Of a stretch of 64,000 nucleotides of DNA, positions 8,694 through 15,302 are shown in pieces. Source of the stretch: Candidatus Poribacteria bacterium (lineage in GTDB: Bacteria; Poribacteria; WGA-4E; WGA-3G); NCBI GenBank assembly GCA_965198235.1, contig OZ240248.1:3072001-3136000 (forward strand), given 5' to 3'. The first letter of the stretch is position 1. Every line of letters starts with the position of its first letter. Below the pieces are notes generated by a model. It was not told where the DNA came from. It made no database searches and was given only the letters and a program-made list of their open reading frames with translations. A program made the translations under genes and the position numbers.

Positions 8694-9347
8694 TTAAGAC
8701 ATTGAGTCGCGCTCTTGGATCCGCGTTCGGATGCTCGCGACAAGCGTGTACAATGCAACTGGGTTTTCATCTTGGAATGGGATAATCAGATCAGCATACT
8801 GCTTGCAGGGTTCGGTATAGACAGGGAAGTTAGGGAGGACATCGCGCCGATACCAGTTAATAGCCCACTCCAGATCACCCCCGCGTTGTGCAACATCACG
8901 GAGCATCCGGCGCAGGACACGTTCATGTGCATCTACATCAAGGAATAGTTTAATGTCCATCAAGTTTCGTAAATCTTCACTCCAAAAGATGAGATGTCCT
9001 TCCACAATAACGACCTTGCTCGGTTGCACGCTCGCTTTTTCGCCGCCGCGTTGCGCGGCACGCGTGCCGGGGGTGGGTGTGTTGATCGCATCGCCATCGC
9101 GAAGTTTCTTGATGTCTGCGATGAGGGCATCCCATAGAACGGCATCCGGATGATTCGCAGTGATGACTCGTTCCCGTTCCGCTTCCGAGTATTCTGACCA
9201 GTCGCGAAAATAGGAATCCTGATTTAGCACGACAGGCGAGAATTCCGTGAGTTGTTCTGCCAAGGCACTCGCGAACGTCGTCTTTCCAGAAGCGGAACCC
9301 CCCATAATCCCAACGGTCATCGGTCTGAAATGTTCTGGTTTCGGCAT
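8694..9347 (-). CDS. udk: uridine kinase
   Basis: GIMGGSASGKTT, QDSYFRD, NHPDA, IIVEG, RRMLRDV..RG, EPCKQYADLIIP. Confidence 0.85.
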   Translation of the reverse strand: MPKPEHFRPMTVGIMGGSASGKTTFASALAEQLTEFSPVVLNQDSYFRDWSEYSEAERERVITANHPDAVLWDALIADIKKLRDGDAINTPTPGTRAAQRGGEKASVQPSKVVIVEGHLIFWSEDLRNLMDIKLFLDVDAHERVLRRMLRDVAQRGGDLEWAINWYRRDVLPNFPVYTEPCKQYADLIIPFQDENPVALYTLVASIRTRIQERDSMS

Positions 9348-9459
9348 AGTTTTCTCCGTAGTGTCCTCTTTTCGCATATTAGCACACCTTGATTTAGCAG
9401 TCAACACTATTTTATCGGTTGAAAATTGGCTTCACACCTATGGTTGCAAAAAAAGAAAT

Positions 9460-9488
9460 TTGACTTGTATAAAAAAATGTGTTATTAT
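9460..9488 (+). promoter_or_regulatory. sigma70-type promoter of leader-aroF-leuA
   Basis: TTGACT-N17-TATTAT with extended TG. Confidence 0.6.
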
Positions 9489-9655
9489 ATAATAGGATTA
9501 GTCATTTTACAGGAAATTACGGCGTACCCTTTTCAAAGTGCTATTCCTTGTGAAAAATACCGTCTTATATTACAATAAAGATATCCGCTTTGATAGCGGA
9601 GTTTGCTTTCAGAACATTAGGGTCGGGACTTTTTACCCTAATTTTTAGGACCTTG

Positions 9656-9850
9656 ATGATGCGAACGCTTCAACGTAATACTACCACAGCACAGATACCT
9701 CATGTCCGGGTTGCTCCAGCCTCTTTACGGAACGCTTCCCTCTATGCATGGTCTCTTTTTACGCCTCTTACAAGCAAAGGTTTGTTTGAAGGCTTTTTTG
9801 GATTGTATCTGTACCTGTACTTATATTTGTACAGCAACGACAGGTGGTGA
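9656..9850 (+). CDS. putative attenuator leader peptide (64 aa) ending FEGFFGLYLYLYLYLYSNDRW
   Basis: AGGA RBS; (Leu-Tyr)5 at 9803-9832 written with mixed synonymous codons; lies upstream of aroF-leuA. Confidence 0.75.
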   Translation: MMRTLQRNTTTAQIPHVRVAPASLRNASLYAWSLFTPLTSKGLFEGFFGLYLYLYLYLYSNDRW

Positions 9851-9902
9851 AGGTTCGTAGGCGGTGCCTATATTACAAAAACTAACCGATTCAATTATCA
9901 CC

Positions 9903-9941
9903 ACCCGGCGTTGAAAAAATTCAATGTTGGGTATTTTTTTT
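9903..9941 (+). terminator. attenuator terminator
   Basis: ACCCGGCGTTGAA-AAAA-TTCAATGTTGGGT followed by A and T8. Confidence 0.8.
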
Positions 9942-9976
9942 AACCGAATTTGATTTGCGACAGACAGGATTATTTT

Positions 9977-10093
9977 CGGTGCAGCTTGCAAACCGAAAAC
10001 TTGCTATTAAGAAGGCGGTGTCGCTTGCGAACCGGAAACTTGCTATTAAGAAGGCGGTGCAACTTGCGAACCGAAAACTTGCTATTAAGAAGG
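9977..10093. repeat. 39-bp tandem repeat, 3 copies
   Basis: CGGTGnnnCTTGCrAACCGrAAACTTGCTATTAAGAAGG x3, directly before the aroF RBS. Confidence 0.95.
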
Positions 10094-10111
10094 CGGAGGT
10101 AGTTGAAAAGC

Positions 10112-11128
10112 ATGGTAATCGTTACCAAGACCGATGCGACACAAGCAGATGTCAATGCTGTTGTAAAACGGATCGAAGATGTAGGATTGAAAGCACAAGT
10201 CTCAGTCGGCGAGAGACACACTGTGATCGGTGTCATAGGAGATAAAACATTGCTTGGTGATATTCCGATAGAGTCAATGTCCGGTGTCGACCGAACGATG
10301 CCCATTACGGCACCGTTCAAATTGGCAAGCCGTGAGTTTCGGGATGAACCGACGGTTGTTGCAGTCAACGGCACAAAGATTGGTGGGCGGCAGGTGCCCG
10401 TCATTGCCGGTCCGTGTGCAGTAGAAAGCACGGAACAGATCGTAACCATTGCTCGGCAAGTTCGGAGTGCCGGTGCCAGTTTCATCAGAGGCGGTGCCTT
10501 TAAACCCAGAACAGGACCTTATAGTTTCCAAGGTTACGGCGAAGAGGCTCTCAAAATGCTGGGGGCGGCGAAAACCGAAACCGGACTCGGCATTGTCACC
10601 GAGGTCATGACCCCGCACGAAGTCGAACTCGTTGGTGAATATACAGATATGTTCCAACTCGGCACGCGGAACATGACAAATTTCTATCTGTTGCGTGAAG
10701 TGGGACGTGCAAATAAGCCTGTAATCCTCAAGCGCGGGATGTCGGCGACAATTGAGGAATGGCTCCTTGCCGCCGAGTATATCCTCGCAGAAGGAAATCC
10801 CGGTGTCATTCTCTGTGAGCGCGGTATTCGGACTTTTGAAACGCACACCCGCAACACACTTGATTTGAACGCCGTGCCTGTTATTCACGAATTAAGCCAC
10901 TTGCCTATTATTGTTGATCCGAGCCACGGCACGGGTATTCGGAGTCTCGTATGTGATATGACAAAGGCATCTGTGGCTGCAGGGGCAGATGGATTGTTAC
11001 TTGAAGTACATCACGATCCAGATCATTCAATGACGGGAGATGGCGCGCAGTCGCTGTTCCCAGATCAATTCGAGACCCTGATGCGAGAACTGAAGCCGAT
11101 TGCCATCGCTGTCGGTCGTGACATCTAA
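10112..11128 (+). CDS. aroF: DAHP synthase (class I-beta, N-terminal ACT-like domain)
   Basis: IAGPCAVES, GGAFKPRT, KPVILKRG, CERGIRTFE, DPSHGTG. Confidence 0.95.
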   Translation: MVIVTKTDATQADVNAVVKRIEDVGLKAQVSVGERHTVIGVIGDKTLLGDIPIESMSGVDRTMPITAPFKLASREFRDEPTVVAVNGTKIGGRQVPVIAGPCAVESTEQIVTIARQVRSAGASFIRGGAFKPRTGPYSFQGYGEEALKMLGAAKTETGLGIVTEVMTPHEVELVGEYTDMFQLGTRNMTNFYLLREVGRANKPVILKRGMSATIEEWLLAAEYILAEGNPGVILCERGIRTFETHTRNTLDLNAVPVIHELSHLPIIVDPSHGTGIRSLVCDMTKASVAAGADGLLLEVHHDPDHSMTGDGAQSLFPDQFETLMRELKPIAIAVGRDI

Positions 11129-11202
11129 CTTTTTAATGATTGCGTTTTTGTTCATTTTTTGTCGATGGCAAAAAATGCCCAGCTGATACAATTTAAAAGG
11201 CG

Positions 11203-11268
11203 ATGAAGTTGGCGGTGTTGGTTATGTTATGTTGTCTGATGCTTTTAAATTTGACAATACCCTTTTGA
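11203..11268 (+). CDS. possible Leu-rich leader peptide of leuA (MKLAVLVMLCCLMLLNLTIPF)
   Basis: 7 Leu in 21 codons, AAGG upstream; GTCTGATGCT can pair with downstream AGCATCAGAC. Confidence 0.4.
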   Translation: MKLAVLVMLCCLMLLNLTIPF

Positions 11269-11337
11269 CAGCATCAGACTTCTCTCGCAACTTGCAAACT
11301 TTATCCGCCCCTGATTCAAATTTGGAGGAACAGAGCC

Positions 11338-12891
11338 TTGGACGATTTTCAAAACAACCCGCAGAAGGTTTATATTTTCGATACAACGCTCCGCGATGCT
11401 GAACAGACACCCGGCGCTGCGCTCGGTATTGAGGAGAAACTGGAGATTGCCAAGCACCTCGCCAAATTAAATGTTGATATCATTGAAGCAGGATTCCCAA
11501 TTTCGTCGCCGGGAGATTTCGACGCTGTCAAACGGATAGCCAACGAAGTTGAAGGACCGGAAATCTGTGCACTCTCTCGCGTTGTCGAGAAGGACATTAC
11601 TGCCGCATGGAAAGCTATTGAGGATGCACCACGCGCCCGTATCCACACTTTTGTCGGTACATCACCGATTCACATGGGACGCATCACACGGACGACCCCC
11701 GAAGATACACTTCGGATGGCAACCGATGCAGTCGCCTATGCAAAGAGTTTGTGTGAAGGACATCCGGATGCGAATGTCGAATTTTCACCAATGGACGCGG
11801 GACGGACGGAATTAGCGTTCCTTTATGAGGTCGTTGAAGCAACGATCGCAGCAGGGGCAACTGTTGTCAATATCCCGGAAACCGTCGGATGGACAGTACC
11901 AACGGAATTTGGTGACTTAATTAAAGGCATCATGGAAAATGTCCCGAATGTTAACGATGCCATTATTAGTGTACACTGTCATAACGACCTTGGTTTAGCG
12001 GTGGCGAACAGTCTTATAGCAGTTGAGCAGGGCGCACGGCAGGTGGAGTGCACCATCAACGGACTCGGAGAACGTGCTGGCAATACCTCACTGGAAGAGG
12101 TCGTCATGGCGATCCGAACCCGACGTGACTACTTCAAAGCGTATTACACCGATATTAACGCAAAAGAGATCGTTCCAATCAGCCGGCGTGTGAGTCGAAC
12201 AATGGGCATTGCCGTTCAACCGAACAAGGCGATTGTGGGTGCGAACGCATTCGCACACAGCTCGGGTATCCATCAGGACGGTATCATCAAATCGCGCGTA
12301 ACCTTTGAAATCATTGATCCGAAAGAGATCGGATGGAAAGAGAGTCAGCTGATTCTCAGCCCGCGTTCCGGCCGCAACGCGCTCAGACACCGACTCAACG
12401 AACTCGGCTACGAAGTGGACGCGGATCAGTTGGACAAAGTCTATGAAAGATTCCTGCGGGTCGCTGATAAGAAGAAAGCCGTGCAGGATGCTGACCTTGA
12501 AGCGATCATGAGCGATGAAATTCGCTCCATTCCTGCTGTCTTTGAGCTGGATTACATCCAAGTCGTCAGTGGAACGAGAATCGCATCGACAACGACGGTC
12601 GGTATTCGGACGGAAGATGGTGTGGTTGAGAGAGCCTCAACTGGGGACGGACCGGTGGATGCGGCATTTAAGGCGATTAACCAAGTTGTCGACATGCAGC
12701 TAAACCTCATGGATTACCAGATCCGTTCCGTAACCGAAGGGGAAGACGCTATTGGTGAAGTCTCGCTGAAGGTACAAGACAACGGAAACATCATCACCGG
12801 ACACGGTGCCAGCACAGACATCATCGAAGCAAGTGCGCGGGCTTACATCCACGCTGTTAATAAGTTAATTCAGATCCGTTCGGAAGGATAA
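11338..12891 (+). CDS. leuA: 2-isopropylmalate synthase
   Basis: FDTTLRD, HCHNDLG, GERAGN, HSSGIHQDG, C-terminal regulatory domain GDGPVDA; TTG start with GGAGG. Confidence 0.95.
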   Translation: MDDFQNNPQKVYIFDTTLRDAEQTPGAALGIEEKLEIAKHLAKLNVDIIEAGFPISSPGDFDAVKRIANEVEGPEICALSRVVEKDITAAWKAIEDAPRARIHTFVGTSPIHMGRITRTTPEDTLRMATDAVAYAKSLCEGHPDANVEFSPMDAGRTELAFLYEVVEATIAAGATVVNIPETVGWTVPTEFGDLIKGIMENVPNVNDAIISVHCHNDLGLAVANSLIAVEQGARQVECTINGLGERAGNTSLEEVVMAIRTRRDYFKAYYTDINAKEIVPISRRVSRTMGIAVQPNKAIVGANAFAHSSGIHQDGIIKSRVTFEIIDPKEIGWKESQLILSPRSGRNALRHRLNELGYEVDADQLDKVYERFLRVADKKKAVQDADLEAIMSDEIRSIPAVFELDYIQVVSGTRIASTTTVGIRTEDGVVERASTGDGPVDAAFKAINQVVDMQLNLMDYQIRSVTEGEDAIGEVSLKVQDNGNIITGHGASTDIIEASARAYIHAVNKLIQIRSEG

Positions 12892-14937: not shown

Positions 14938-15114
14938 TTAATCCCCAAGCATTTTAAGAATATGCTTTGCTAACACATCTTTGATTTCCCTATGGCGCGG
15001 AACTGGCTGAGAAACGCGGGTACCCGGATTCTGGTACCAATCATGCTTCGCACCATGACGAATGAGCACACACCCTATCTTTTTTAACTCACGAATCAAG
15101 TCTCGTCTTTTCAT
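14938..15114 (-). CDS. hicA: HicA-family toxin (58 aa)
   Basis: Below the ORF-track cutoff. MKRRDLIRELKKIGCVLIRHGAKHDWYQNPGTRVSQPVPRHREIKDVLAKHILKMLGD; ATGA overlap with hicB. Confidence 0.9.
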   Translation of the reverse strand: MKRRDLIRELKKIGCVLIRHGAKHDWYQNPGTRVSQPVPRHREIKDVLAKHILKMLGD

Positions 15115-15302
15115 GCAATCCGTAATTCAGCAACCTTTCGAATACACGGAATAGTCCCGCTCGTGAGTTCCTTGTAAATATCAAGAAGGTTTTCCTCTAA
15201 GGCTTCTATGGTTTCGCCCTGCGTCCAATAATCGGGATATGCTTCCAGATATCCGATAAATACTGTTTCATCTTGCCAGTAAATGTACTTTTGCGTTTTC
15301 AT
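15111..15302 (-). CDS. hicB: HicB-family antitoxin (short form)
   Basis: YPDYWTQGETIEALEENL. Confidence 0.88.
   Translation of the reverse strand: MKTQKYIYWQDETVFIGYLEAYPDYWTQGETIEALEENLLDIYKELTSGTIPCIRKVAELRIA

Follow-up and report, generated by a model that had tools for sequence, protein, structure and literature searches.

How a gene pair that serves two unrelated pathways is controlled in the Poribacteria, uncultivated symbionts of sponges, and by which amino acid, is the question raised by a short element ahead of aroF and leuA. The element lies at positions 9656-9941 of the DNA analysed here, a 64,000-nucleotide stretch of a Candidatus Poribacteria genome (assembly GCA_965198235.1, contig OZ240248.1, positions 3,072,001 to 3,136,000, forward strand), the whole of which is referred to below as the window; it consists of a small open reading frame (ORF), in which Leu and Tyr codons alternate near the 3' end, and an intrinsic terminator. 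Our results make it highly probable that this is a classical ribosome-mediated leader-peptide attenuator governing aroF and, with aroF, leuA, for which tyrosine is the primary signal. Several parts characteristic of such an attenuator are in place, i.e. a short ORF with a start codon and a ribosome-binding site, a late cluster of Tyr codons, an intrinsic terminator before aroF and a helix that excludes the terminator. Whether leucine is sensed along with tyrosine is a separate matter, on which the evidence is divided.

The leader ORF occupies 9656-9850 of the + strand, has 64 codons when counted from the first ATG and reads MMRTLQRNTTT...FEGFFGLYLYLYLYLYSNDRW-stop, with ...GLYLYLYLYLYSNDRW-stop as its C-terminal end; the ATG at 9659, from which the sequence MRTL... 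begins, is the conserved start. A Shine-Dalgarno-like AGGA, read from the sequence at 9647-9650 (+), is located 5 and 8 bases upstream of the two ATGs (9656 and 9659). In a preliminary description of this DNA the leader had been said to end in FEGFFG-LYLYLYLYLY-SNDRW-stop, which is indeed what is present at these positions, and the ten repeat codons (TTG TAT CTG TAC CTG TAC TTA TAT TTG TAC, at 9803-9832, + strand) are as they had been listed. This (Leu-Tyr)5 run, with five Leu and five Tyr codons in alternation, is the proposed set of control codons and the proposed window for ribosome stalling.

The terminator (9903-9941, +) is a 13-pair hairpin at 9903-9932, with five G-C pairs, a loop of four bases and a folding energy of -16.5 kcal/mol, behind which the tail ATTTTTTTT supplies a U8 run at 9934-9941; both the 13-bp hairpin and the U8 tail had been claimed earlier. 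The antiterminator proposed with them was correct in part. GGTGGTGA (9843-9850) is the exact complement of TCACCACC (9898-9905), but the overlap of that pairing with the terminator is only three bases, and the real competitor is a 14-pair helix between 9835-9850 and 9898-9913 (both +). Its 3' strand overlaps the 5' arm of the terminator at 9903-9913 and so takes in 11 of the 13 bases of that arm. The longer helix is made up of CAACG (9835-9839) paired with CGUUG (9909-9913), C9841 paired with G9907 and the 8-bp helix already mentioned. Its 5' strand corresponds to the codons Ser-Asn-Asp-Arg-Trp-stop, such that the stop codon of the leader is inside the strand.

Both helices show covariation. 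In an alignment of 83 sequences, on which the helix statistics are based, 98% of cells are paired for the terminator, with two pairs changed on both sides, and 96% are paired for the antiterminator, three pairs of which have changed on both sides (A-U 43/G-C 26, U-A 48/C-G 13, and one more). The double-sided changes of the antiterminator amount to 40 cells, compared with a shuffle mean of 15.8, and 40 was reached in 0 of 500 shuffles; slid control registers score far lower. The 8-bp helix, taken by itself, is 98% paired but has no double changes, and a slide of -3 leaves it 92% paired; it was rejected as the antiterminator and the 14-pair helix put in its place. The constraint in the antiterminator strand is thus one on the RNA, not on the protein, and this explains the conserved peptide tail (S/G)NDRW-stop. 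A helix that would exclude the terminator is present, and other families, though different in sequence, share the arrangement.

The loci compared comprise 25 of the same genus (L001-L025) and 80 further loci (L031-L110), the two sets overlapping in genomes, with 89 distinct sequences among 109; codon statistics refer to 79 distinct leader ORFs. All 25 same-genus loci have an ORF of 57-72 codons with the pattern MRTL(Q/E)RNT ... (X-Tyr)n ... (S/G)NDRW-stop, and a homologous leader ORF is found in all 79 of the 80 further loci that have upstream sequence, that of the sister genus ending ...LWALFTLGLYPFLYCGGRW-stop. The leaders are 38 to 84 codons long across the loci, with the ATG and the AGGA kept and the frame open despite indels; of the 79 distinct sequences, only 15 and 5 are open in the other two frames along the ORF, although the leader frame itself is open through the method of selection. 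Other families of the order have analogous aromatic-rich leaders of their own before aroF (g7, LFFLYFFYYSDCGRKW; g8, MPFLYFRYYSDGQQR; g4, IFCLYYTFNIYSEVDGRQ; g5, FYAWVLYTFLLYLRSDGGL; also g2), and in each of them a G-rich strand within the 3'-terminal part of the ORF repeats the 3' arm of the terminator of the respective family. Second AroF paralogs (51-55% identity) have neither the leader nor leuA. A comparison of the regions upstream of aroF in relatives had been put forward as a check on the original proposal; the leader ORF is kept at all loci with upstream sequence, and terminator and antiterminator both show the two-sided changes described above. With the ORF, the terminator and the competing helix kept in all related loci examined, attenuation logic of the trpL/pheL type before aroF and leuA, as had been suggested, is supported.

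The proposed mechanism is as follows. Transcription would start just downstream of a sigma-70-like promoter (9460-9488, +; TTGACT-17-TATTAT with an extended TG, matching 10 of 12 consensus positions), and a ribosome would translate the leader of 63-64 codons. When charged Tyr-tRNA is ample, the ribosome would reach the UGA at 9848-9850 and cover 9835-9850, whereupon the hairpin at 9903-9932 would form with its U8 tail and transcription would stop at about 9941. When charged Tyr-tRNA is scarce, the ribosome would stall within 9803-9832, leaving 9835-9850 free to pair with 9898-9913; with 11 of the 13 bases of its 5' arm removed the terminator could not form, and polymerase would continue into aroF and leuA. 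The Leu codons share the stall window, and leucine starvation should physically act alike. In this scheme we infer the geometry of the ribosome, the amino acid sensed and the co-transcription of aroF and leuA. When the nascent RNA was folded with the ribosome as a mask, for which footprint sizes were assumed, the full antiterminator formed with the A site at 9812 or 9821, only its 8-bp part was free with the A site on the last Tyr codon, and the antiterminator was blocked with the ribosome on the stop codon.

Contigs from four metatranscriptome runs (X1-X4) of a single study are available for the region; such contigs reveal no ends, strand or level, and DNA carry-over is possible. One contig, identical to the window over 9504-10001, passes through the terminator, and another (10753-11348) spans the entire aroF-leuA spacer. 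Contigs in three runs start at 9504-9512, approximately 16-24 bases past the -10 box, which is a weak hint, given that contigs cannot define a transcript start. The contig breaks at 9957-10001 fall in a tandem repeat, and the uncovered bins in runs X2-X4 carry no weight. Overall, the contigs give a weak hint of expression and of readthrough.

Several observations weigh against attenuation by this switch as just described. The GGUGGUG segment also pairs three bases upstream, as a consequence of its GGU-GGU periodicity, in a register that is compatible with the full terminator. This slipped register is both the RNAalifold consensus and the thermodynamic minimum, and the switch would therefore have to be kinetic. 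A clean 1:2 anti-antiterminator that is conserved could not be established; ACAGG is the partner of the LY run in the single-sequence fold, a pairing that RNAalifold does not recover. No Rfam cis-regulatory family was found in 9300-11500 at E values up to 10; the two Rfam matches there, to the hilD 3'UTR and mir-3613, were rejected as being at chance level. The RNA contigs pass through the terminator and cannot reveal 3' ends. Finally, codon-position entropy over the leader is approximately equal (0.87/0.78/0.88), which gives no positive proof of translation, and it was dropped as an uninformative test; the leader peptide itself is without protein-like selection, as expected for leaders.

The evidence that tyrosine is the signal comes from codon content and from a paralogous copy of the element. 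Of the 16 final codons of the 79 leaders, 26.6% are for Tyr, compared with 2.2% of the rest of the leader and 3.4% genome-wide, an enrichment in the leader tail far beyond chance; the genome has one tRNA-Tyr gene. A second attenuator, with the leader ...YALFTLGLYYYLYCNGRW-stop and a near-identical antiterminator and terminator, is situated 11 bases upstream of a second tyrosyl-tRNA synthetase gene, tyrS2 (G000 contig C1, 1120339-1121810, - strand; locus L111/L112), which is 79% identical to the main copy (C1:1720391-1721659). No third copy was found by blastn of the genome, the tyrS2 copy being the only one besides that of the window; a 21-base match at C1:1384120 is inside an ABC ATPase ORF and was discarded as chance. 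At the search cut-off, tyrS2-like copies (82-86% identity) occur in only 3 of the 24 other same-genus genomes (G007, G016 and G017). The copy in G016 (L114) is without a leader, the leader in two relatives that carry tyrS2 reads GLYLYLYCNGRW-stop, and GLYLYLY is present in two of the three same-genus tyrS2 cases. In family f2 the gene order is leader-tyrS-leader-aroF-leuA, and the tyrS leader there reads YLY. Because of the Tyr enrichment, the tyrS2 paralog and the f2 gene order, we take tyrosine to be the signal common to the whole family. The conclusion that it is the primary, conserved residue sensed is well supported by these comparisons, and the paralogous attenuators appear to constitute a small tyrosine regulon, comprising aroF-leuA and the second tyrS.

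The position of leucine is less clear. The preliminary description envisaged an OR gate for two pathways, of which the trpL/pheL-type attenuator before aroF-leuA stands, but a role of the Leu codons on behalf of leuA is not established, the Leu slots being variable and the tyrS leaders also having L-Y alternation. Likewise, of the LY run in relatives, which had been expected to be conserved, the Tyr residues are kept but the Leu slots vary.

It is plausible, if not quite probable, that the element senses tyrosine only and that the Leu codons are passengers or structural. A YTR-TAY unit would then have grown by 6-base slippage, and bases of the CUGUAC type would act as a self-complementary region 1 that pairs with ACAGG (9840-9844) in the absence of a stalled ribosome. 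Relatives have 3 to 6 X-Tyr units, as 6-base slippage would give; this qualifies the earlier statement that the run is not a simple DNA microsatellite, which holds insofar as Tandem Repeats Finder gives no period-6 array and the codons differ synonymously. Codon choice points the same way. In the 25 same-genus loci the Leu codons are CTG 45, TTG 29, TTA 20, CTT 6, CTA 4 and CTC 0 (n=104), with G or A as the third base in 98 of the 104; Tyr codons are about evenly divided (TAT 65, TAC 63). CTC is the commonest Leu codon of the genome (28.5%), yet is absent from the leaders, an avoidance that points to a constraint at the nucleotide level. The minimum-energy fold does pair segments of the LY run as a structural role would have it, AUCUGU (9807-9812) with ACAGGU (9840-9845) and CUGUAC (9815-9820) with GUACAG (9829-9834), with CUGU/ACAG pairing and self-pairing of GUAC. 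In addition, L-Y alternation is likewise found before tyrS, and the leader is kept at one locus without leuA (L193, see below). However, those pairs are lost where F, V or M replaces Leu, and such variants persist nonetheless; the five Leu codons in the stall window would react to Leu starvation whatever their origin, and a His/Trp parallel described below suggests a correspondence between mixed leaders and mixed operons in this phylum.

That the leader is a bivalent Leu OR Tyr attenuator selected as such, in which either shortage would open the operon and so match the presence of both AroF and LeuA, is possible, and we advance it tentatively. The most telling point in its favour is the independent parallel, a leader containing ..NHWHWW.. 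before hisI-trpE-trpG. The adjacency of aroF and leuA is also consistent with it, leuA being downstream of aroF in 109 of 110 loci (the single exception stops at a contig edge), with a spacer of down to approximately 13 bases and an RNA contig across the spacer in the present case. There are 4-6 Leu codons per stall window in the genus, Leu accounts for 23.3% of the 16 final codons, compared with 14.4% of the rest of the leader and 9.7% genome-wide, and the Leu codons vary synonymously among CTG, TTG, TTA, CTT and CTA. A Leu-rich leader was not seen before leuC or leuS when the 450 bases upstream were inspected by eye, and of the two T-boxes in the genome one belongs to ilvB (Val) and the other to pheS (Phe).

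These points have to be set against the behaviour of the Leu codons elsewhere. Leu fills 229 of the 289 X slots of (X-Tyr)n, the remainder being F (32), V (8), S (7), Y (6) and others, M, W and P included, with Tyr kept throughout. A co-occurring strain in the RNA runs has TTA>TTT at 9823, and tyrS leaders, which have no leucine link, show the same L-Y alternation (GLYLYLY; YLY in f2). The g14 locus L193, the single contrast of a leader without leuA that was examined, keeps a Leu-/Tyr-rich leader and a terminator before aroF with no leuA within 1.3 kb. Conversely, no leader precedes aroF-leuA in families f6 and f9, which implies that the gene pair predates the leader or does not depend on it. 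In other families only 1-4 Leu codons are close to the Tyr/Phe codons, and the count of 0 of 104 for CTC fits an origin in RNA pairing or slippage at least as well. That this genus responds physically to Leu starvation, irrespective of whether the response was selected, is somewhat more likely than bivalence selected as such.

It is very improbable that the region is untranslated and that its UAY triplets, spaced every six bases, are a binding array for a TRAP-like RNA-binding protein, or that it is a riboswitch or T-box, for although the UAY spacing is regular and entropy is equal at the three codon positions, the ATG and AGGA are conserved with the frame open in all loci despite indels (other frames, 15 and 5 of 79), the stop codon falls exactly within the antiterminator strand, the region is without an Rfam match of this kind to E = 10, with sites for the T-box model only elsewhere in the genome, and other families lose the triplet spacing yet keep an aromatic-rich ORF.

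Leader-peptide attenuation as proposed here for aroF-leuA has company in the same genome. A scan of the whole genome for small ORFs linked to terminators gave 117 rows, mostly chance-like, of which the Tyr, Ile and Trp/His cases were taken further. The His/Trp case is a leader of 33 codons, MTLLRSHSSLHSISNHWHWWRSNGLWGSVRSNG-stop, with a terminator, before hisI (PRA-CH), trpE and trpG (G000 contig C1, ~4582070-4584410, +; L158). Of 30 trpE loci in relatives, 27 have its HWHWW core, a second family, f3 (HHWHWWWH), being among them; hisI is a single-copy gene, and the leader is a candidate for a bivalent His plus Trp attenuator. An Ile-rich leader ending ..RAISIIIIAIRRAVVG-stop, again with a terminator, precedes the isoleucyl-tRNA synthetase gene ileS (G000 C1, ~1238950-1242490, +; L159). 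The presence of the ileS and hisI-trpEG leaders in one genome indicates that leader-peptide control is in general use here. The T-box model (RF00230) matches the genome at two sites only, before ilvB (G000 C1:4749386-4749665, +; 102.8 bits; specifier GUC, Val) and before pheS (C1:757232-757436, -; 83.6 bits, which is below the gathering score of 93; specifier UUC, Phe); with two T-boxes beside the leader peptides, the phylum mixes both types of control. It may be, though we are inclined to regard this as rather less than probable, that Poribacteria wire mixed-pathway operons to mixed-codon leaders, i.e. (Leu-Tyr)n for aroF-leuA and HWHWW for hisI-trpE-trpG, each functioning as an OR gate with two inputs.

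The mechanism is textbook attenuation, already known in kind. In the trpL, pheL-pheA and hisL systems of E. coli, an ORF with sensor codons is combined with a mutually exclusive antiterminator and terminator, the choice between which is decided by the position of the ribosome. The Poribacteria element shares the sensor-codon ORF and the mutually exclusive helices, but it differs in being without an Rfam leader match, in having its stop codon inside the antiterminator strand, in the lack of a clear 1:2 helix and in a 3-base slip that coexists with the terminator. The leader of the E. coli thr operon reportedly interleaves Thr and Ile codons, with bivalence demonstrated there, in work from 1987 attributed to Lynn and colleagues. 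The codons of two amino acids are thus interleaved in one control region in both systems; Thr and Ile, however, share one pathway branch, unlike Leu and Tyr, and it is for thr only that bivalence has been demonstrated.

Closer precedents exist for the genes concerned, and the earlier statement that no example had been described has to be narrowed accordingly. In Corynebacterium glutamicum the aroR leader (Phe-Tyr-Phe) attenuates aroF, as reported by Neshat et al. (2014) according to the review PMC11802643, in which pheL and trpL attenuators are also described. The same review has aroR responding to limitation of Phe and not of Tyr. The similarity to the element studied here is that of an aromatic-codon leader attenuating an operon that opens with a DAHP synthase gene, and the Poribacteria leader differs in its length (63-64 codons), its five Tyr codons alternating with Leu, its leuA partner and its paralog at tyrS. 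For E. coli aroF, an "attenuator sensing tyr-tRNA" is entered in Table 3 of PMC2659441, with citation of Camakaris et al. (1980); like the proposed Poribacteria switch this is a control of aroF that is dependent on Tyr-tRNA and independent of repression, and the entry itself gives no leader ORF or structure. Leader-peptide attenuators of synthetase genes are described, in PMC1262725, for pheST (gamma-proteobacteria) and for trpS and leuS (Streptomyces), a type to which the paralog upstream of tyrS2 also belongs; the RNA control named for tyrosine in that paper is by T-boxes, not leader peptides. Together with the thr leader, aroR and the E. coli aroF entry are precedents. Our literature searches (supplements excluded) found no cross-pathway leader for Leu plus an aromatic amino acid, and likewise no Poribacteria attenuator, aroF-leuA leader, His/Trp leader or tyrS leader peptide; a search for the phrase "multivalent attenuation" gave one unrelated paper only.

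The overall results provide a conserved picture of amino-acid sensing in a phylum of uncultivated sponge symbionts, in which duplicated tyrosine attenuators would stand over both synthesis (aroF) and charging (second tyrS). The aroF-leuA and hisI-trpEG leaders may be useful as two natural test cases for the integration of signals from unrelated pathways. Were the two-input reading true, one attenuator would report a shortage of either of two unrelated amino acids; were tyrosine alone sensed, the element would be another instance of a textbook mechanism, and would raise the question of why leuA is tied to tyrosine supply.

With respect to the genes themselves, aroF (10112-11128, +) encodes a type I-beta DAHP synthase with an N-terminal ferredoxin-like regulatory domain (Pfam PF00793 and PF18152; NCBIfam NF006421, score 474.4, cut-off 335) and is single-copy in the genome by tblastn. 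It is separated by a spacer of 209 bases (11129-11337, +) from leuA (11338-12891, +), the product of which is a 2-isopropylmalate synthase (NF002086, 751.8, cut-off 532; TIGR00973, 698.9, cut-off 598.7; Pfam HMGL-like and LeuA_dimer); both NCBIfam equivalog cut-offs are passed, and LeuA has one distant genomic paralog (27.5% identity). Distances are variable, with 137 to 300 bases from the leader stop to aroF among same-genus loci and 55 to 385 bases from the aroF stop to the N-terminal motif of LeuA among relatives, in which the shortest spacer is that of approximately 13 bases.

Between the terminator and the aroF ribosome-binding site, the 5' untranslated region contains a 39-base tandem repeat in 3.1 copies (9977-10096, +). 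The repeat unit, equivalent to 13 codons, reads ..QLANRKLAIKKAV.. in one frame, and the linker of a double ABC-ATPase gene (G000 C1:1383079-1383226) also contains it in frame. Leader ORFs of relatives contain a related unit, which is duplicated in L011 and L068, and joints that skip repeat units are seen in the RNA contigs. An upstream ORF at 9950-10102 (..ENLLLRRR x3), which ends right at the start of aroF, was considered and rejected; it is not conserved and is a by-product of the variable copy number of the repeat. Further along the window, two small adjacent ORFs are located on the - strand at 14938-15302, which by eye resemble a HicA/HicB toxin-antitoxin pair and are a possible candidate for one.

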